From the NCBI GenBank assembly GCA_023252195.1, contig JAHEXI010000017.1, positions 18,604-50,603 on the forward strand: 32,000 bases of DNA. The letters run 5' to 3'. This document shows, piece by piece, positions 2,555 to 28,000 of the stretch. The notes under the pieces are model-generated. The model had not been told where the DNA came from, did no database searches, and saw only the letters and a program-made list of their open reading frames with translations. Position 1 is the first letter of the stretch; every line of letters begins with the position of its first letter. A program made the translations under genes and the position numbers. The DNA is from Pseudonocardiales bacterium. Its GTDB lineage: Bacteria; Actinomycetota; Actinomycetes; Mycobacteriales; Pseudonocardiaceae.

Positions 2555-3271
2555 TCAGGAGGGTTTGGGTGGTTTGCCGCTGATGCGGGTGATGATGTCG
2601 TGGGCGATGTCGCGCAGCTTGGTGTTGCGGTGCGAGGACGCGGCGCGCAGGATCTCGAATGCGTCATCGGCGGTGCACCGGTTTTGGCCCATGATGATGC
2701 CCAGCGCCTGATCGATGATGGTGCGGGAGGCCAAGGCGGCTTCGAGGTGACCGGTGAGCTCGACTTTATCGGCTAGCCGCCAGGCCAAACGCAGCGCACG
2801 AGCCGCCTCACCGGCGAAGCCTTCGGCGCGGTGCACCTGATCAGGGGTGAACACCCAGGGCTGGTGAGAGTAGAGGTTCAGCGCCCCGTTCTCGCCCAGG
2901 CTGATCAACAGCGGGACGGACAGGACGGATCCGATCCCGTGGGCGAGGGCATCCAGGCGGTAGTCGCCCCACCGGTATTCGGTGGCGAGGTCGTTGATGG
3001 TCACGATCTCGCCGGCGCGCATCGCGGTGAGGCAGGGCCCGTTGTGGTGGCCGTATTGCACCTCATCGAGGTTGGTCGCGGTGTCGTCGCTGCTGGCCAC
3101 GGTGAAGGGCCGACCGTCGCGGCTCAGGGTGATCCCGCACGACAGCCCGGGCCCTATGGTGTCCGCGGCGTAGTGGGACACATCGGTGAGGAAGTCGGTG
3201 AGGCTGTCGGTGTCGAGGAGTAGTTGCTGAAGCTCGGCGGCGGCCGACGGGCCGAGGGCGCCCTGTACCAC
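2555..3271 (-). CDS. GAF + ANTAR domain RNA-binding regulator (antiterminator-type one-component regulator)
   Basis: The C-terminus ...LEAALASRTIIDQALGIIMGQNRCTADDAFEILRAASSHRNTKLRDIAHDII is a clear ANTAR helix bundle. The preceding ~150 aa look like a GAF domain (GPCLTAMRAGEIVTINDL...LSVPLL...GALNLYS). High third-position GC starts at about GTG 3271. The rest of the 517-aa track ORF upstream is Trp/Cys/Pro-rich and does not look coding. Start is uncertain. Confidence 0.8.
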   Translation of the reverse strand: MVQGALGPSAAAELQQLLLDTDSLTDFLTDVSHYAADTIGPGLSCGITLSRDGRPFTVASSDDTATNLDEVQYGHHNGPCLTAMRAGEIVTINDLATEYRWGDYRLDALAHGIGSVLSVPLLISLGENGALNLYSHQPWVFTPDQVHRAEGFAGEAARALRLAWRLADKVELTGHLEAALASRTIIDQALGIIMGQNRCTADDAFEILRAASSHRNTKLRDIAHDIITRISGKPPKPS

Positions 3272-3758
3272 GAGATTGTCACCAGTCTCGGCGTGAGAGC
3301 CGAGTCTCCGATCATCGCAGACGGCGCGCCGTGGGGCCGACGAACTCGGAGTGCCTCCGACACCCCCCGTGGTGGCCGCGGCGTGGTGCCGCTCGGTGGG
3401 CACCACCTGGGCCCTGGAGCTGCACGAACTCGACGCTGGCACCGCGCGGGGGACGGTCGTGGCCTGGATCAGCTCCGGAGTACCTGTCACCCAACCAGCG
3501 CCGGACGCGCTGGCCCGCGACCTGCTTGCCGCGGGCTGCGGCTGCTCCGCGATCCGTCCGCCGGCCCCGGCACCCGCAGCCGGCGTCGCATTGGCTACGT
3601 CTGTGCCCACACCGAGCCGATCACAGGGACCGACCCCGCCACCCGCGCCGCGCTGCTCCTGGCCCTTGCCTGGGGCCCGGCCACCACCGAATCCGACCCA
3701 TCGACCAACCACACCGCCCGGATCACCGCCGTTGATTCCCGGCGTCCGGCCCCCGATT

Positions 3759-4043
3759 TCAGGCCCGGCGGCCCAATCCGGGGTAGTCCAGCACCACGCT
3801 ATCGGCATCCACAGTGAGCTCCGCTTCGAACGAGTCCCCGCTGATGCCGACCACTGCCGGCTCGCCCAGCGACACCGTGCGGTAGCTCTGGGATACCGGG
3901 CACACCTCCAGGCTGGGCAAGCCGACGAACACCACCAGCAGATCGTGCCGGGCATCGGCGCGATGCAGTTCCAGCCGGCGCACCGGCGGCGCGGTGAACA
4001 GCGGACTGAACGCCAGGCCGCCGCCTTCTGGATAGCGGGGTAG
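3759..4043 (-). pseudogene. C-terminal half of a putative glycolipid-binding-domain protein (Glycolipid_bind/DUF1089-like), 5'-truncated
   Basis: The open frame reads LPRYPEGGGLAFSPLFTAPPVRRLELHRADARHDLLVVFVGLPSLEVCPVSQSYRTVSLGEPAVVGISGDSFEAELTVDADSVVLDYPGLGRRA*. This matches my recollection of the C-terminal part of that family (...FTAELTVDxDGLVxDYPGLFxR). An in-frame TGA lies immediately upstream (4044-4046), followed by AT-richer unrelated sequence. Confidence 0.55.
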
Positions 4044-4793
4044 TCATTTGTTGGTGAGCGTGACCCTGAATCGTCGTAGCTATCGGTTGGAACCAATAAG
4101 TGGGTCATACGGTCATCACTCTTCGTCGTCTCGCGTTAAAAGCAAAAGGCAAAAGAACGCCCTCCCAGGGTACATCGGGCTGAATTCCGCGCAACGCGCA
4201 CGCACAGTTCCCATCGGCCAGTACCGGCCGACTTGTGAGATTTCTCGCTGGTTGTTCTACCGGTGGGCCCGGCTGTCGCCGACAGTGGTGGTGATGTCCA
4301 GGCATCGTTGCGCGAGGTGACGCTGGGTGGCGACGAGCTCGTCGACGACCTCGCGCTGAGCCGCGAGCACCCTCTCGAACAGGTCATAGGCGCCCGATGG
4401 GGGATCATCGCAGTGGCGCACTGTTTGGGTGGATTTTTGCTGGTAGCGTGGGCCGCGGTCCGGCAGCGTGGCCAGCCCACAGAGATTGATGTGCGTGGTG
4501 CGAGATGCCCCTGGACTGTTTCCTCACGCGCGGAGGTGCCAGCGTGGTGATGATGCCCGGGTGCGCGTCCGCGGTGCCGGTCGCCGTGGCCACCCGCCGG
4601 AACCGCGATGGGTAGCGCCACGGGGAGCCGACACCGCTGTTGGTGCTGGTGCAGGTGGGTCGGGGATCTCTCACCAGCAGGGGCCCTCACAGCGCACGTG
4701 AGCCGACGAGACCGCGACGGTCACCGGTGGGAAGTAGGCGGTTGGGCGACCAACCGCAGACAACGCCGCTTGAGCGGCCGAGGACGGATGGAC

Positions 4794-5066
4794 ATGACCG
4801 AACGGTTCGATGCCCACAACATCTCTATAGACGAGCAGCTGGCCCACGAAGGCGCGTGCGCCCAGATCCATCTGCCTTCCGGCCGGACCTGCGGGCTGCC
4901 CCTCCACCACCACGGAAGCTGCCGATTTCTTCACCTCACGGATTCCCCCGCTCCCGCTCGCCGTCGCCACCTGGGCGCAGCCCTGGGAGCTGAGTTCCCA
5001 CCCGCGGCCGAAGGTCCGATCGCGCCGCAGGCGGCAGGCGGGCAGCATGAGGGCAGAGTCCTCTAG
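4794..5066 (+). CDS. Hypothetical small protein with a Cys/His cluster (orphan)
   Basis: ATG 4794 lies 9 nt after AGGA (4781-4784). Product MTERFDAHNISIDEQLAHEGACAQIHLPSGRTCGLPLHHHGSCRF..., with a C-x12-C-x7-HHH-x2-C pattern. Third-position GC is moderately high in the first ~45 codons. I recognised no family. Confidence 0.35.
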   Translation: MTERFDAHNISIDEQLAHEGACAQIHLPSGRTCGLPLHHHGSCRFLHLTDSPAPARRRHLGAALGAEFPPAAEGPIAPQAAGGQHEGRVL

Positions 5067-15149: not shown

Positions 15150-16113
15150 CTAAGCGCCGTCCAGCTCGATCCGTTGACCTTCCGGGGTGATCGTGAACTG
15201 CCAGCGGTCGGCGCTGGGTTTGCCGCGCTGCACCCACCAGGCGTGCGCGGCTTCGACCTCATCCCACAGCCGCCGAGGGCCGTACTGGCGTACCGGGACT
15301 CGTCGTCGTTGGCGTCTGGGGTGAGGTGGGTCAGCTTGGCCCAGGAGCGGGACTCGGGAGCCAGTAGCCAGACCACCGCTGCCCCGTCCTTCTCGTCGTA
15401 GGGCCAGTACCGCCACTGGCATTGCGGCACCCGCTGACCGACCGCGAATTGTGCGCCCCGATCTCCGGTGACCCAATACGGGTGCAGATCGGTGGCGCTG
15501 ACCTCTGCCCGGTCCTCGTCGGCGCCGACTACAGCGGCCACGGGTCCGCGCCGCTCCCGCAACCACATGAAGCTGCTTTCGGCAACGATGCCGCCGCCTG
15601 CGCAACCGTGATCGTCGATGTCACGAGCGCACCGGTATAGCTGTTGGCCCAGGGCAGCAGAACTCTGCCGCCGGGCCGGGTCTGTTCCACCCAGGAATAC
15701 GGGATTTGGTGTACGGCGGCCGTAGCGATGATCCGGTCATACGGGGCTCCCGCTGGATGCCCGAGAGCCCCGTCGCCAGTGATCACGCTGATCTCGCCAT
15801 AGCCGGTGTCAGACAGCGCTTTGCGTGCCTGGGCTGCTACTTTCTGGTCGATCTCTAGGCTGGTCACGAGCTGGGCACCGAGCCGGTAGGAGAGCAACGC
15901 GGCGTTGTAGCCAGTGCCGGTGCCGATCTCCAGGACCCGATACCCGGGAACGGCGTCGAGAGCGGCCAGCATCACCGCGACCATGATGGAAGACGACGCC
16001 GAGCTGGTCGGCATCGTCCCACTCAGACCCGGTCCGATGGGGCGTCCATCGTCGATCTGGGTGATCACCGCATCGTCAGCGTAGGCCAGCTCCAGCCACC
16101 GCTGCGGGTCGCC
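15150..16113 (-). pseudogene. Protein-L-isoaspartate O-methyltransferase (PIMT/PCMT)-fold methyltransferase with a C-terminal extension; disrupted
   Basis: Three track ORFs in three frames join into one homologue: ...WLELAYADDAVITQIDDG...TSSASSSIMVAVMLAALDAVPGYRVLEIGTGTGYNAALL...APYDRIIATAAV...GGRVLLPWANSYTGALV / DIDDHGCAGGGIVAESSFMWLRERRGP...THLTPDANDDES / VRQYGPRRLWDEVEAAHAWWVQRGKPSADRWQFTITPEGQRIELDGA*. Frame switches lie near 15617-15625 and 15293-15300 (G3 run). In-frame TGA (16114-16116) and TAG (16129-16131) lie upstream, and there is no room for a normal N-terminus before the divergent XRE gene. Confidence 0.75.
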
Positions 16114-22627: not shown

Positions 22628-24346
22628 TCACCTGTCCGCGAGCTCGATGATCGGGTACTTGGGCTGCCACATGGCCTGGTGCACTTGCCGGACCGGGTCG
22701 TCCACGGGCACCTGCGCCAGCCCCTGCTCGACCGCGGCAACCGCGACCGCGACAGCTACGGCGGCGGAGACGGTGCGTAGGTCCTCGATCGGCGGCAGCA
22801 GCGGCGCTCCGGGAGCGGTAGCGTCCGACAGTCGGGCAACGGCGTCCGCGGCCGCGGCGATCATTGGTTGGTTGATCCGCCGGGCACGGGCCACCGTGAC
22901 GCCGAGGCCGAGTCCGGGGAAGACCAGGGCGTTGTTGGCCTGGGCGATGCGATGGGTGATCCCACCGCGGAGGACCGGCGGGAACGGGCTGCCGGTGGCG
23001 ACCAACGCCCGGCCGCCGGTCCACCGGATCAGATCCTCGGGCAGCGCTTCACATTTCGACGTCGGATTGGACAGCGGCATGATGATCGGCCGCTCGGTGT
23101 GCGCGGCCATCTCCCTGATGATGGTTTCGGTGAACACGCCGGCCTGCGCCGAGGTGCCGATGAGCATGGTGGGGCGTGCGGCTGACACGACGTCGGCGAG
23201 GGTGACCGTGGTGCCCGTATCGGTGGACCAGCCGGCCACCTCTGCCGCGCTCCGCGCGTAGGGCAGCTGGAAGTCGCGCAGGTTGGGTGTGTCGTCGACC
23301 AGCAGGCCCCGGCTGCCCAGGGCGTAGAAGCGCGCGGTGGCCTCGGCGCGGGACAGTCCGTCGCTGATCATGATATCGCGCATCATGTCGGCGATGCCCA
23401 GCCCGGCGGTGCCGGCGCCGTGGATGACCACCCGCTGGTCGCGTATCCGGGTCCCCGCCGCCCGGACGGCGGACAACGCCGCGGCCAGCACGACCGCGGC
23501 GGTGCCCTGCAGGTCGTCGTTGAAGGTGCACACCTGGTCGAGGTACTTGTTCAGAATGCGTCGCGCGTTGCCAGCGGCGAAGTCCTCCCAGTGCAGCAGC
23601 GCGTTCGGGAAGAGCCTGGTGGCGGCGGTGACGTAGGCGTCGACCAGATCGTCGTAGCGCTGGTCGCGGACTCGGGCGTGCCGCGCACCGAGGTAGGTCT
23701 CGTCATCGAGAAGCGCCACATTGTCGGTGCCCGTGTCCAGCACCACCGCCAGCACCCGGTGTGGGTGGATGCCTGCCGCGGCCGTGTAGACCGCGAGCTT
23801 GCCGATCGCGATCTCGATGCCGCCCACGCCCTGGTCGCCGATGCCCAGGATGCCCTCCGAGTCGGTAGCCACGATCAGGTCGACGTCCTCGGCGTCCATG
23901 CCACAGTTGCGCAAGGACGCCTCCACGTCCTCCGGCCGGTCGACGGAAAGGAACACCCCGTGCGGGCGACGGAACTCATAGCTGAACCGCTCGATCGCCA
24001 GCCCGACCGTCGGGGTGTAGACCACCGGCAGCATCTCCTCGATGTGCTCGCACAGCAACCGGTAGAACAGCACCTCGTTGCGGTCCCGCAGATTGGCCAG
24101 GTACACCCAGCGGCGCAGATCGTCGGCCTGCGCGCGGTACTGGCCGTAGACCCGCCGCACCTGGCCGTCCAACGTGCTCACAGCGGTGGGCAGCAGGCCG
24201 GTCAGGGCCAAGGCCTCGCGTTCTTCGAGGGTGAACGCCGTCCCACGGTTGATCGTCGGGCTGGTTAGCACGGCGTGGCCCCTCGCGTGGATGCGCGCTA
24301 CCACACCGTCAGCGGTTGAAAAGAGCTCGTATCGCGGCTGGTGCAT
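22628..24346 (-). CDS. mez: NAD(P)-dependent malic enzyme
   Basis: MHQPRYELF...TSPTINRGTAFTLEEREALALTGLLP...VVYTPTVG...ATDSEGILGIGDQGVGGIEIAIGKL...FNDDLQGTAAV...IHGAGTAGLGIA...PIIMPLSNPTS. ATG 24346 follows AAGGAGAGG. The 51-codon upstream extension in the track was rejected. Confidence 0.93.
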   Translation of the reverse strand: MHQPRYELFSTADGVVARIHARGHAVLTSPTINRGTAFTLEEREALALTGLLPTAVSTLDGQVRRVYGQYRAQADDLRRWVYLANLRDRNEVLFYRLLCEHIEEMLPVVYTPTVGLAIERFSYEFRRPHGVFLSVDRPEDVEASLRNCGMDAEDVDLIVATDSEGILGIGDQGVGGIEIAIGKLAVYTAAAGIHPHRVLAVVLDTGTDNVALLDDETYLGARHARVRDQRYDDLVDAYVTAATRLFPNALLHWEDFAAGNARRILNKYLDQVCTFNDDLQGTAAVVLAAALSAVRAAGTRIRDQRVVIHGAGTAGLGIADMMRDIMISDGLSRAEATARFYALGSRGLLVDDTPNLRDFQLPYARSAAEVAGWSTDTGTTVTLADVVSAARPTMLIGTSAQAGVFTETIIREMAAHTERPIIMPLSNPTSKCEALPEDLIRWTGGRALVATGSPFPPVLRGGITHRIAQANNALVFPGLGLGVTVARARRINQPMIAAAADAVARLSDATAPGAPLLPPIEDLRTVSAAVAVAVAVAAVEQGLAQVPVDDPVRQVHQAMWQPKYPIIELADR

Positions 24347-24360
24347 GCACCTCTCCTTGT

Positions 24361-24395
24361 CGTCCGCAACCAGCGCGAGCCCGCTGGTTCGGACG
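24361..24395 (-). promoter_or_regulatory. Strong stem-loop in the mez 5' leader, directly abutting the Shine-Dalgarno
   Basis: Plus-strand CGTCCG(C)AACCAGCG-CGAGCC-CGCTGGTTCGGACG forms a 14-bp stem with one bulged C and a 6-nt loop. On the mez mRNA it ends 14 nt before the ATG, immediately 5' of AAGGAGAGG. Confidence 0.35.
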
Positions 24396-24483
24396 CCGCC
24401 CGTAAGTGTGGCCGACGCCGCGCGGGTCGGCGAGCCTGGCAACCACCGAAGTTGCGCCCTACTCCTTCTAAAACACATCATAG

Positions 24484-24512
24484 TTGACCAAATAGCCATA
24501 GCGTTCTATCGT
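24484..24512 (+). promoter_or_regulatory. Sigma-A-like promoter candidate (TTGACC - 17 nt - TATCGT) reading toward the small ORF and gdh, with an ATAG-N4-CTAT inverted repeat over the spacer/-10
   Basis: TTGACC at 24484-24489 and TATCGT at 24507-24512, with ATAGCGTTCTAT at 24498-24509. This is the AT-richest patch of the mez/gdh divergent region. Confidence 0.35.
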
Positions 24513-24656
24513 TAGTGCATCAAGTCATTAGAAGGGCCCCGACGGCCAGGAGGGCAGAGATGGGTCAGCGCACTCACAGAGGCGCCAGTCCAACATCACG
24601 AGTCCGCGGACGCGCCGGATCGGTTCAAGGCCCAGGAAAGAAGAGGAGAGAACGAT

Positions 24657-24848
24657 ATGAGGATCACGGAAATCTTCGAACTTGGCGGTTTTGGCCGAGG
24701 CCATGACCACGGCGACAACTGTGGTGATAGGGGCCACCGGGGTCACGGTGGCCAGCGGGATCACGGGGATCGCGACGATCGTGGCAGTTACCGGGGTGAT
24801 AGGGGCTACTGGAGCGGCGGCTACAGAGATGGCAGGGATGGGTACTAA
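24657..24848 (+). CDS. Orphan 63-aa Gly/Arg/Asp/His/Tyr-rich small protein
   Basis: The ATG lies 7 nt after GAGGAGAG. Product MRITEIFELGGFGRGHDHGDNCGDRGHRGHGGQRDHGDRDDRGSYRGDRGYWSGGYRDGRDGY*. The frame was chosen on SD/ATG context, because the region is stop-free in 4 of 6 frames. Confidence 0.55.
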   Translation: MRITEIFELGGFGRGHDHGDNCGDRGHRGHGGQRDHGDRDDRGSYRGDRGYWSGGYRDGRDGY

Positions 24849-24849
24849 G

Positions 24850-24866
24850 CCCTTGGGCGGCAAGGG
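24850..24866 (+). terminator. Short hairpin immediately after the small-ORF stop (possible weak terminator or attenuator)
   Basis: CCCTTG-GGCGG-CAAGGG has a 6-bp stem and a 5-nt loop and starts 2 nt after TAA. No U-tract follows. Confidence 0.3.
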
Positions 24867-24905
24867 ATCGATACCAAGGCTTGTGGCTTAGAGTCCGCAG
24901 CTGAG

Positions 24906-25049
24906 GTGATCCCGCAGGACCCCGCGACCGCCACCGCGATCCGGGCGTGCCCGACCGCGATTCTGCTTCTGATCTTGGTCGCCGTGCTCGGACTCGTGGT
25001 GGCTGTTGCGGTGCTGCTAGCCGACCGAGTGTGGAGCCAGCAACGATGA
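24906..25049 (+). CDS. 47-codon micro-ORF encoding a single-pass transmembrane peptide; stop overlaps the gdh start
   Basis: From GTG 24906: VIPQDPATATAIRACPTAILLLILVAVLGLVVAVAVLLADRVWSQQR*. It has a 22-residue hydrophobic core. By hand count third-position GC is 38/47 in this frame versus 13/33 in the gdh frame over 24947-25045. The TGA at 25047-25049 overlaps the gdh ATG at 25046-25048. It is below the 60-aa cutoff of the ORF track. SD is weak. Confidence 0.45.
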   Translation: MIPQDPATATAIRACPTAILLLILVAVLGLVVAVAVLLADRVWSQQR

Positions 25050-28000
25050 CCGCCACAGCGCCCACCCCTCGTTCTGGAGCCGAGGCCGATCGACCACGAG
25101 ACTTGGCCGACCCCGCGTCGTGCAGCGCTCTCGCCGAGCTGATCGTGCTCTACTACCGGCTCGTTCCTGCTGAGGAGCTGAGCACCGCCGAACCCGGAGA
25201 ACTCGCGGCAGCGGTCCAGTCGCATCTGGCCCTGGCCGCGGACCGGGTGCCCGGTCGGGCGCTGGTTCGCCTGCTCAACCCCACCCGTGCCGAGGACGGC
25301 TGGAGCTCCCGCGACATGGTGGTGCAGATCGTCACTGATGACATGCCCTATCTGGTGGACTCGGTGGTCGCCGAGCTAGCCCGGATCAACGTTTCGGTGC
25401 GGCGCCTCGTGCATCCGATCGTCGTGGTCCGCCGCGATCTCACCGGAACCCTGCAGGAAGTACTCACCGGCTCTGATCCAGACAAGGCGCCCACAGATGC
25501 GCTGGTGGAGTCCTGGATGTATGTCAACGTCGATCGCATCACCGATCCCGACCGGGCCCGGCAGGTGCAGCAGCGGCTGCTGACCGTGCTCACGGATGTG
25601 CGTGAGGTTGTCGAGGACACCGAGGCGATGATCGGCGCTGCGTGCGCCCTGGCTGACGCACTGGACGCTGCGCCGCCGCCGCTGCCGGCTCAGGAGGTGG
25701 CCGAGGGTACCGCCCTGTTGCGCTGGCTGGCCGACGAACATTTCGTTTTTCTCGGCTACCGGCGCTACGAGCTGCTCTGGAAATCGACCGATGACCCGGC
25801 GGACGGCACGGCGCCCGCGCTGCGGGCGGTGCTCGGGTCCGGGCTCGGTGTGCTGCGCAGGGACAGCGTTGCCGCCAAAGGTCTCCGCACCGGACCGGAC
25901 GTCGACCCGCTGGCCCGGAATCTGCTGGTGCTTACCCAGGCTAGTGCGCCCGCCACCGTCTACCGGCCGGTCTACCCGCACTACATCGGGGTCAAGATCT
26001 TCGACGAGCGTGGCGCGGTCACCGGGGAGCATCGCTTTCTGGGGGTGCTGGGCACCACTGCGCTGCATGCGGACGTGCTGGGAATCCCGGTGATCGGCCG
26101 CCGGGTCCGCGAGGTGATCCATCGCGCCGGTGTCCCTTTCGATTCCTACTCCGGGCAGCGGATGGTGGAGGTGCTCCAGACCTACCCGCGGACCGAGCTG
26201 TTCTCCACTGACATGGACTCGCTGTACCAAACGGTGACCGGGGTGTTGTCCCTGGCGCAGCGGCGCACGGTGCGGTTGTTCTGCCGGCGTGATCCCTACG
26301 GCCGGTTTTTCTCCTGCCTGGTCTACCTGCCGCGCGATCGCTATACCACCGCCGCGCGGCTGGCCATGCAGGACGTACTGCTGCGCGATCTGCACGGCAC
26401 TGAGCTGACCTACAGCGCGCAGATCGGCGAGTCCGTGCACGCACGGGTGCACTTCACCGTGCACACCGACCCGGATGATGGTGGCGTGCCGGCGGCACCC
26501 GACGTCGGCGCGATCACCGAACGCCTGGAGCACGCCGTTCTTACCTGGGATGATCGGCTCCTCGACGCTGCCTCGACGAGCGGCGCAGCCACTGCGGAAC
26601 TTGTGCAGCGTTATTTGACGGCTTTCCCGCAGGCATATAAGGAAAACTTCGACGCTGCCACCGCGCTGGCCGACATCTCGCGGCTGGAGGCGCTGGCCGC
26701 ACCAGACGGTCTGGACTTGTGCTTTGAGATCCCGGAGGGCGGCGAGCCGGGGGAACGGCGGTTCAAGGTCTACTTGGCGGGGCAGCGGATCACCCTGTCC
26801 CAGGTGCTGCCGGTGCTACAGCAGCTGGATGTCGAAATCGTCGACGAGCGGCCCTACCAGGTAATCCGCGGCGACAGGGTGCACTGCTGGATCTACGACT
26901 TCGGGCTGCGGTTGGATGCCACGCTGTTGGAACAGCTGGCCGGTCAGGCCGTCGAGGACGTGGAGCGGCGGTTCGGCGAGGCGTTCGTGGCTGGCTGGCG
27001 CGGCGCCTGCGAGGTGGACCGCTTCAACGCCCTGGTGTTGCGCGCCGCGCTGGACTGGCGCCAGGTAGCGGTGCTGCGGGGTTACGTCCGCTATCTGCGG
27101 CAGGCCCGAAGCCGCTACAGCGAGCGCTATGTCGAGGAAGTGCTGCTCGCGCACAGCGGCATCGCCGCTGCCCTGGTCGGCCTGTTCGAGGCCCATTTCG
27201 ATCCGGCGCGCGATGGCGCCACCCGAGACATCAGGCACGACGAGCTAGCGGTGCAGATCACCAGGATGATCGACGAGGTGGCCGGGCTGGACGCCGATCG
27301 CATCCTGCGCGGCCTGTTCACCCTGGTACGCGCCACGCTGCGGACCAACTACTACATCCGTGACGCCGAGGGTGCCCCTCGGCACTACCTGGCGCTCAAA
27401 CTCGACCCGGGGACGGTGCCGGAGCTGCCCGAGCCGCGGCCGGCGTTTGAGATCTTCGTCTGCTCCCCCCGGGTGGAGGGTGTGCATGTGCGCTTCGGCC
27501 CGATCGCCCGTGGTGGGCTGCGCTGGTCGGATCGCCGGGAGGACTTCCGCACGGAGGTGCTCGCCTTGGCCAAGGCGCAGACGGTGAAGAACGCCGTGAT
27601 CGTGCCGGCCGGAGCCAAGGGCGCCTTCGTGGTCAAGCGCCCACCGGCGGCTACCGGTGACCCCACGCTGGACCGCGAGGCACTCCAAGCCGAGGGCATC
27701 GCCTGCTACCGGATGTTCGTATCAGGATTGCTCGATCTCACCGACAACCTGGTAGCCGGCCGGACTCGGCATCCCGACCAGGTGGTGTGCCACGACGGCG
27801 ACGACAGCTACCTGGTCGTCGCAGCCGACAAGGGCACCGCGACGTTCTCCGATATCGCCAACGAGGTCGCCGCGTCCTACCAGTTCTGGCTGGGCGACGC
27901 GTTCGCCTCCGGCGGCTCGGCAGGCTATGACCACAAGGCCATTGGGATCACCGCCAGGGGTGCCTGGGAAAGCGTCAAGCGGCACTTCCGCGAACTGGGC

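Follow-up and report, generated by a model that had tools for sequence, protein, structure and literature searches.

A probable small-protein gene with a conserved head and a tripeptide-repeat tail, carried on a self-contained module in uncultured soil actinomycetes of Pseudonocardiaceae type

Introduction

Helicobacter Hpn and the mycobacterial metallothionein MymT are small His-rich or Cys-rich proteins that bind metals. Another group of small proteins, the hydrophilins, includes Hsp12 and Stf2 of yeast and YciG and RMF of E. coli, and induction by water deficit is also part of its definition. Here we describe a 63-codon open reading frame (ORF) that shares features with both groups. It lies between mez and gdh in a stretch of 32,000 nucleotides from Pseudonocardiales bacterium (GenBank assembly GCA_023252195.1, contig JAHEXI010000017.1, positions 18,604 to 50,603), which we call the window and in which all positions are counted unless a locus is named. 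The ORF was picked out in an earlier sequence-only reading of this DNA, as an orphan rich in Gly, Arg, Asp, His and Tyr that might encode a hydrophilin-like protein, a metal-binding peptide or a regulatory leader peptide for gdh. The analysis reported here indicates that it is very probably a real translated gene.

Hydrophilins are Gly-rich stress proteins of small size that are disordered and highly hydrophilic (Garay-Arroyo et al., 2000, summarised in PMC6730492), and have been screened for by requiring a grand average of hydropathy (GRAVY) below −1 and a Gly content of at least 8% (PMC6730492). Repeated three-residue units are found among the precursors of peptides that are made by ribosomes and modified after translation (RiPPs). 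HTK, HAA, HNR and YDR are among the motifs known from triceptides, and some precursors carry several motifs that contain His (PMC11499958). The His-Xaa-Ser precursor HxsA is larger than the protein discussed here and is reported to carry a peptidoglycan-binding domain; in more than 99.8% of HXS systems it is accompanied by HxsB, HxsC and HxsD (PMC13128918).

The ORF resembles each of these systems in part. Like the hydrophilins, it encodes a small Gly-rich protein of low GRAVY, with no predicted structure and with a composition that is kept more than its sequence. It has in common with Hpn and MymT a length of about 60 residues, a low complexity and many potential metal ligands, and with MymT that standard annotation has overlooked it. 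Its layout, in which the N-terminus is conserved and several of the three-residue units that come after it have His, Tyr or Phe in first place, recalls HxsA and the triceptide precursors. Finally, leader peptides that act by attenuation or arrest have a similar arrangement, in which a short ORF of rare codons is separated from the next gene by an RNA structure that is stable and conserved. The differences from these systems are described below, together with the evidence for and against each.

Results

The reading frame under selection

Nine DNA versions of the ORF were compared (window copy included), which encode eight distinct peptides of 61–67 residues. The product of the window copy (ATG 24657 to TAA 24848, forward strand) is MRITEIFELGGFGRGHDHGDNCGDRGHRGHGGQRDHGDRDDRGSYRGDRGYWSGGYRDGRDGY. 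The ORF had been described as stop-free in four of its six frames. This is essentially correct: frames +0 and −0 have no internal stop, and frames +1 and −2 have one stop each, at the extreme edge of the ORF. The frames were distinguished by a codon alignment of the nine sequences, from which the pooled pairwise ratio of non-synonymous to synonymous differences per site (pN/pS) was calculated. In frame +0, pN/pS is 0.38 overall, with 0.09 for the N-terminal head and 0.44 for both the middle and the C-terminal part, and no version has a stop. The other open frames have values of 0.97 (+1), 1.05 (−0) and 1.09 (−2). The two antisense frames are thus open yet neutral, and frame +1 was rejected as the coding frame, although it is the one that gene callers annotate.

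In a second test, distinct single-step codon variants were counted and compared with the share of synonymous sites, using the binomial distribution. A synonymous excess was found in frame +0 (P = 1.3e-4), with P values of 0.33–0.84 in frames +1, +2, −0 and −2. Frame −1 also has an excess (P = 0.0013), which is an echo of frame +0 because the two share their wobble position, and it cannot be coding because it is interrupted by many stops.

The ATG, the position of the stop and a purine-rich Shine-Dalgarno (SD) sequence at a fixed distance from the ATG are kept in all nine sequences. All differences in length are in frame, amounting to 6 nt in the window copy and otherwise to 9 or 18 nt. In the head, 89 synonymous differences (pooled over pairs) stand against 26 non-synonymous ones, and residue 4 alone is variable. 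Because the start, SD and stop are kept in nine DNA versions, the insertions and deletions (indels) are in frame and there is a synonymous excess, the ORF is beyond chance, and these sequence comparisons make it very probable that it is translated in frame +0. The sequence-only reading had made its case depend on a conserved frame; one was found, and it is the frame that had been proposed. The alternative that it had also put forward (MTTATTVV..., frame +1) is not under selection, and shows no synonymous excess. An SD sequence had been noted 7 nt from the ATG, and is indeed present, but GAGGAGAG at 24643–24650 leaves only 6 nt.

Public gene calls mostly take the overlapping +1 frame (window 24682–24891; 2543–2749 in locus L008; deposited proteins P0124–P0128). 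The products are hydrophobic "hypothetical proteins" of 60–71 residues, such as MAITVVIGVTG....

That gene callers skip the ORF or choose another frame, and that four of six frames are open, could also mean that there is no protein gene here. The conserved unit would then be a relic or a non-coding RNA, and the frame would be open simply because a G-rich 9-nt repeat lies in GC-rich DNA; the non-coding flanks have about the same degree of conservation as the ORF, and the codon usage is atypical. We consider this highly improbable because of the frame test, in which frame +0 alone is both stop-free and enriched in synonymous changes. The invariant ATG, SD and stop, the excess of synonymous differences in the head and the in-frame length changes also argue against it. 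Searching Rfam with 24200–25200 (E ≤ 1) gave no family match, only one spurious plant microRNA model, which has a gathering score of 197 and reached 19 bits.

Homologues

The homologues were collected in several ways. A word-indexed search of 5.8 billion proteins gave two (P0001 and P0002), and an exhaustive profile search of 1.84 billion representatives with a hidden Markov model gave only P0001 and the truncated P0003, with no wider relatives beyond this tiny family itself. A genome scan gave at least one locus (L004, in a Pseudonocardiaceae metagenome-assembled genome, MAG), and a DNA pattern scan of metagenomes gave L005 and L006. Loci L008–L012 were collected via the neighbouring DoxX gene, and L019–L021 via the wrong-frame products P0124–P0128 deposited by gene callers. 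On a further contig, L007, the mez gene is the same and the ORF is identical to that of the window, but no gene has been called at the ORF.

All copies are on contigs of Pseudonocardiaceae type from uncultured soil bacteria, and the carriers that are named are uncultured Pseudonocardiaceae or actinomycete MAGs. It had been suggested that the peptide fits no named family, and searches of Pfam, NCBIfam, PHROGs, PADLOC and the sequences of the PDB bear this out, giving no significant match. The family is very small, is unnamed, and has so far been found only in uncultured Pseudonocardiaceae-type soil actinomycetes.

Head and tail of the product

The product consists of a head and a tail. The head has the consensus MRI[T/S/M]EIFELGGFGRG, with variation confined to position 4, and is probably a docking element or a short amphipathic element. 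The tail is made of about 15–17 degenerate triplets of the form (His/Tyr/Phe/Asp/Asn)-(Arg/Gly)-(Asp/Asn/Gly/Ser). In L021, for example, it reads HGD DCG NRG HRS HGD HRD HRN HRN FGD HGR FSG YRS GGY RDG RGG Y.

The triplets are also visible in the DNA. Nucleotide autocorrelation peaks at lags of 9, 18, 27 and 36. Relative to codon-shuffled controls, the z value at lag 9 is +3.6 for the window copy and between +2.2 and +4.4 for the homologues. The program TRF finds an 18-nt period at 24732–24766. At the DNA level the repeat unit is approximately NAY-CGN/GGN-GAY/AAY/GGN, and since the unit starts with NAY, the first-position residues His, Tyr, Asp and Asn are one base apart. The 12-nt direct repeat GGTGATAGGGGC, which had been reported to start at 24722 and 24794, in fact starts at 24723 and 24795; the reported spacing of 72 nt is correct and corresponds to 8 × 9 nt, because the repeat is part of the 9-nt array. 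The tail would lengthen and shorten by slippage of 9 nt.

The low GC content at third codon positions (GC3) to which the sequence-only reading drew attention was also found here. It is 0.64 in the ORF, compared to 0.90 in mez and 0.84 in gdh, and lies in the range 0.52–0.64 across every member of the family, with codons ending in T and many rare codons. From the repeat structure, this is most simply explained if the codons were inherited from the amplified unit and not shaped by translational selection.

A recount of the 63 residues gave 18 Gly, 11 Arg, 10 Asp, 5 His and 4 Tyr, identical to the earlier count. The GRAVY is −1.70 in the window and −1.52 to −1.80 in the homologues, and the Gly content is 29% in the window protein and 22–28% in the homologues. 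There is no Lys, and the net charge is between −1 and +4. The AlphaFold2 model was made from an alignment of 3 sequences, to which its low confidence may partly be due. It has a mean predicted local distance difference test score (pLDDT) of 49, a predicted template modelling score (pTM) of 0.10, and no secondary structure beyond 3 residues. The model is weakly suggestive of disorder.

The two compositional properties used to screen for hydrophilins are therefore present, in line with the sequence-only reading: the GRAVY is below −1 (a mean hydrophilicity above 1) in the window protein and its homologues, and Gly makes up 22–29% of residues, compared to the required 6–8% (or at least 8% in the screen described above). 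No sequence relationship to known hydrophilins was found in the family and homologue searches. Unlike the hydrophilins, the protein has a conserved hydrophobic and acidic head and a strict tripeptide period, and is rich in His, Tyr and Arg and free of Lys. A hydrophilin-like function as a protectant is the best estimate from this composition, from its being kept more than the sequence and from the carriers being soil actinomycetes, although it is rather less likely than not.

The protein is rich in Asp-Gly and Asn-Gly sites, which are hot spots for isoaspartate formation. A gene for protein-L-isoaspartate O-methyltransferase (PCMT) is located at 15529–16068 on the minus strand, 8.6 kb from the small ORF. 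Its proximity is probably a coincidence.

Comparison with RiPP precursors

The contrast between head and tail (pN/pS of 0.09 versus 0.44) would also be expected if the protein were an orphan RiPP precursor. By analogy with known systems, the head would then be the leader for a maturase encoded elsewhere, and the triplets would be triceptide or His-Xaa-Ser cores, cross-linked by a radical S-adenosylmethionine (radical-SAM) enzyme. The tripeptide periodicity fits this, as does the aromatic residue or His at the first position of most units. For four of the six members, the best NCBIfam match is HxsA3 (NF038309), although it is not significant (E of 0.07–1.5) and its score is only 9–13 bits, against a cut-off of 65. 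Model TIGR03979 reaches 7.7 bits against 121.65, and the window protein itself has no match to any HxsA model. Moreover, the first position of the repeat is often Asp, Asn or Arg, which are not aromatic. Units starting with His, Tyr, Phe or Trp make up about two thirds in the homologues and fewer in the window, the rest starting with Asp, Asn, Arg or Gly.

The gene neighbourhood is also unlike that of HxsA, whose genes are almost always co-located as four-gene operons. No radical-SAM/SPASM gene, HxsD, protease or exporter was seen in the 32-kb window or within 6 kb on either side of the ORF in L004, and the genes listed for the other loci include none. In particular, the Pfam models Radical_SAM and SPASM had no match in the 23 ORFs of the window, the 10 ORFs of L004 or the gene lists of L001–L003 and L008–L012. 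This agrees with the earlier observation that no tailoring enzymes are adjacent, which Pfam confirmed for the window and L004. The ORF has its own promoter and is found in unrelated contexts (see below), which again speaks against the RiPP explanation, and we consider it quite unlikely.

A double-glycine leader of the class II bacteriocin type was considered as well. In the consensus of such leaders, the Gly-Gly is preceded by Glu at −8 and by hydrophobic residues at −4, −7 and −12, and they go together with an ATP-binding cassette (ABC) exporter that has a peptidase domain. Counting from G10-G11, position −4 is Glu, −7 is Glu and −8 is Thr, and a leader ending there would have no more than 11 residues, and so this candidate was rejected. 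The sole ABC transporter in the window is of the sugar type (MalK-like OB, BPD_transp_1 and SBP_bac_1 domains).

The module and its genomic settings

The ORF is part of a module of about 550 bp (24467–25017) that comprises a promoter with a palindrome, a leader of about 140 nt, the ORF and a hairpin of 104 nt (Table 1). Comparison with the other loci by blastn gives 71–78% identity across the module and none outside it, the homology beginning at 24467–24484. In the window, the module is flanked upstream by mez, a malic enzyme gene (Pfam malic/Malic_M) on the minus strand that starts at 24346, and downstream by gdh, which encodes a large NAD-glutamate dehydrogenase (Pfam Bac_GDH_CD and others) and starts at 25046. 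Elsewhere it is located between a gene for a STAS-domain protein and one for a DoxX-like membrane protein, with an HTH_31/cupin regulator upstream and genes for ferredoxin reductase and transaldolase downstream. None of the eight other loci has mez or gdh near the module, and the expectation that the frame would be conserved upstream of gdh orthologues was consequently not upheld.

Table 1. Positions of the features that make up the module, in window coordinates
Feature	Position	Strand	Remarks
TCTAAAA(A/C) box	24467..24474	+	TCTAAAA invariant in 9/9; left edge of homology
Sigma-70-type promoter, TTGACC-17-TATCGT	24484..24512	+	TTGAC and TAyCAT kept in all loci
Candidate operator, ~28-bp palindrome with outer arms TCTAy...TTAGA	24505..24532	+	Over the −10 and the predicted transcription start
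Predicted 5' leader, ~140 nt	24519..24656	+	Start inferred from the −10; aligned in 9 sequences
Shine-Dalgarno sequence GAGGAGAG	24643..24650	+	Purine-rich GGAG/GAGAGG, same distance from ATG in 9/9 sequences
Probable small-protein gene	24657..24848	+	63 aa plus stop; pN/pS 0.38, stop-free, in-frame indels
Conserved 15-residue head, MRITEIFELGGFGRG	24657..24701	+	pN/pS 0.09
Tail, degenerate tripeptide array (9-nt period)	24702..24845	+	Ends in conserved GGYxDGxxG[Y/C]
Conserved non-coding 3' region	24849..25017	+	Right edge is the module end
GC-rich RNA hairpin	24914..25017	+	104 nt, 42 pairs in window; loop 24963–24970, no U-tract

DoxX loci that lack the ORF contain no part of the module, and the window contains no second copy of the module and no extra copies of the operator beyond chance. 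Two loci, L003 and L021, have an intact module next to a truncated DoxX gene. Since the flanks vary and the module survives truncation of DoxX, it is self-contained and not tied to gdh; the stretch of about 550 bp is a unit. A mobile element of plasmid or phage origin was ruled out by the lack of any DNA or protein match for the module in plasmid and phage collections.

The 5' part of DoxX is deleted in L003 (about 1290–1700) and in L021 (1149–1559), with different end points, a recurrent rearrangement beside the 3' hairpin. Downstream of DoxX there are two further conserved genes, of about 496–517 and 141–146 residues (3571–5061 and 5084–5524 in L008; 4658–6638 in L002), for which Pfam gave no match at E ≤ 0.1. 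At the matching position, L015–L018 have a protein with a Condensation domain. In the window itself, a 517-residue GAF-ANTAR protein, an RNA-binding regulator of the antiterminator type, is encoded at 2555–4108 on the minus strand and adjoins a gene for a class-III aminotransferase; it is unrelated to the small ORF.

Promoter, candidate operator and 5' leader

The promoter that had been proposed upstream of the ORF is the sole sigma-70-like match in 24300–25150, where 0.1 would be expected from shuffled sequences, and it is conserved in the homologous loci. It is overlapped by the palindrome TCTAyCATCAAgAT / ATcTTGAyrTTAGA, which has arms of 12–15 nt that are 80–92% complementary in L003, L008 and L019. 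No palindrome arm was detected in the window or in L001; the window keeps the outer pattern at 24505–24532. Given its sequence and position, the palindrome is likely to be a repressor site.

One alternative is that the protein is a metal-buffering or chaperone peptide. Its tail, rich in His, Asp and Tyr, would give multivalent binding of Zn, Ni or Cu, as in Hpn, and a metal-sensing repressor would act at the palindrome. Besides the overlap of the candidate operator with the promoter, this is suggested by the His and Asp content, which together is about 17–24% of residues, by runs such as HRDHRDHGGHRNHRN in the homologues, and by a sub-threshold NCBIfam match of one member to the His-rich part of the zinc-uptake protein ZrgA (E of 0.8, and 9 bits against a cut-off of 185). 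However, the number of His is modest compared to Hpn, at 5–8 per member and only 5 in the window copy, and there are at most one or two Cys. Only a single His in the tail is invariant, and the first position of the repeat swaps among His, Tyr, Asp, Asn and Arg (NAY or CGN codons). No metal transporter or sensor was found near the ORF in any context examined, there is no sequence similarity to Hpn or MymT, and an ArsR-like remnant upstream has no support from Pfam or BLAST. The suggestion of a metal-binding role is therefore favoured by composition and disfavoured by positional conservation, and as a primary function it is unlikely.

The putative ArsR-like remnant is a short, conserved minus-strand reading (PLDDPTRRQLYDH...) in the syntenic loci, with the consensus ...PLD(D/E/N)PTRRQLYDH(V/G)..., which starts at the TCTAAAAA box, is frameshifted, and runs into the end of the STAS gene (L004 5534–5812, and the same region in L001, L003, L005 and L021). 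A resemblance to the N-terminus of ArsR-type regulators is unproven, and the reading has no similarity to the HTH_20 regulator of L013.

The leader contains the sequence AGGAGG-N6-ATG (24548–24563), which resembles a second translation start. It shares the frame of the small ORF in L004, where the gene caller chose it as the start of P0003. As an upstream ORF it was rejected: L008 and L019 have no ATG at this site, L021 has GTG instead, and neither the frame nor the length is constant between loci. The predicted fold of the leader has three pairs with compensatory change, a count that is reached by 13 of 500 shuffles.

The 3' region and its hairpin

The 165 nt after the stop differ by 0.18–0.26 between the window and the other loci, compared to 0.39–0.48 at synonymous sites of the ORF, and the divergence of the 3' region is thus about half that of the synonymous sites. 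Its indels have lengths that are not divisible by 3, which shows it to be non-coding. Most of it is occupied by the hairpin, which is 66–169 nt past the stop of the ORF and ends 29 nt before the ATG of gdh. The minimum free energy of 24846–25046 is −103 kcal/mol (z = −4.1). In the alignment of the hairpin, 96% of cells are paired and there are six compensatory pairs; none of 500 shuffles reaches either value, and slid controls have 25–48% of cells paired. The 3' RNA element is constrained. It was ruled out that it belongs to DoxX, as it is absent from DoxX loci without the ORF.

No terminator-like match with a U-tract was found. Judging by its predicted structure, the hairpin probably ends or stabilises the transcript, as an element of the type without a U-tract, and a cis-regulatory role for it is conceivable. 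No second promoter-like site was seen between mez and gdh. Because of this, and because the hairpin ends so close to the ATG, gdh may be reached by read-through, and so may be transcribed through the hairpin.

A 47-residue hydrophobic ORF (MIPQDPATATAIRACPTAILLLILVAVLGLVVAVAVLLADRVWSQQR, 24906–25049) overlaps the hairpin and ends in ATGA with the start of gdh. It was rejected as a gene, as it has a stop at codon 4 in other loci and indels that are not multiples of 3.

The proximity of the hairpin to gdh, with no other promoter-like site between mez and gdh, is also what would be expected of a regulatory leader peptide, in which translation of the rare-codon ORF would modulate the folding of the 3' hairpin domain, only 1 nt past the stop codon, and with it the read-through to the downstream gene (DoxX in most loci, gdh in the window). 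The outer helices start right after the stop, the structured region is more constrained than the synonymous sites, and the ORF is rich in rare codons. However, the ORF is long for a leader, at 61–67 codons, and selection acts on its N-terminal residues, not on a run of regulatory codons. A canonical terminator with a U-tract is lacking, and an unconserved spacer of 120–216 nt separates the 3' element from DoxX. A leader peptide is also disfavoured because the gene that lies downstream differs between contexts and has in places been destroyed: the ORF is still under selection beside the truncated DoxX of L003 and L021. The proposal that the peptide is a leader for gdh is not supported, as the module is located between STAS and DoxX in the eight other loci, and a role as a leader peptide is, on these sequence features, very unlikely.

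Discussion

The overall outcome for the sequence-only reading is that the frame, the composition and the physico-chemical fit to hydrophilins hold, while the link to gdh as a leader peptide does not. Three features go beyond it, namely the 9-nt tripeptide periodicity, the constrained 3' hairpin and the resemblance to His-Xaa-Ser and triceptide precursors.

The best explanation that combines these observations is a real gene on a self-contained module, encoding a protein with a hydrophilin-like tail. We put it forward tentatively. A promoter of the housekeeping type would be held under a repressor at the palindrome, and derepression would lead to the small protein being made. The transcript would have a leader of about 140 nt and a strong ribosome-binding site, and the long GC-rich hairpin would end or stabilise it. 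The disordered tail would act as a protectant through its bulk physical chemistry, and binding of metals by His and Asp may be a side property of the tail.

Several observations weigh against this explanation. The low GC3 of the family and its rare codons are unexpected for an abundant stoichiometric protein in a genome with a GC3 of about 0.9. Selection on the tail is only moderate, and the shallow alignment limits what the low pLDDT says about disorder. A RiPP precursor would likewise combine a head that is conserved with a repeat core that varies. The inner arms of the palindrome have decayed in the window copy. In the syntenic loci, the leader has a divergence of 0.18–0.26, which is the same as or above the synonymous divergence of DoxX (0.14–0.24). 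Because it is no lower, the conservation of the leader is mostly explained by relatedness. Strong constraint on the 5' leader is ruled out by this comparison, and only the comparison with the window suggests mild constraint.

The general kind of protein is familiar, being small, probably disordered and of low complexity. What is unusual is the conserved head, the strict Lys-free tripeptide array and the self-contained module with its constrained RNA hairpin. None of these points bears on a long-standing open question. A real gene would mean a further family of small proteins that had no name, for which public sets mostly hold a wrong-frame translation (P0124–P0128), and it would provide a concrete case of how low-complexity small genes are mis-annotated in GC-rich genomes. 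As an unusually clean natural example of a short conserved head on a repeat tail whose length changes in steps of 9 nt, it would also be a compact model for functions that are driven by composition, such as protection, metal buffering or the formation of condensates. Alternatively, it may be a lead to a new RiPP substrate; if that explanation were true, the family would be a new class of actinomycete precursor, carried on its own regulated module and apart from the biosynthetic genes. In the present genome the module, with its promoter and its hairpin, lies directly ahead of gdh and, if the gene is real, may have rewired the expression of gdh.

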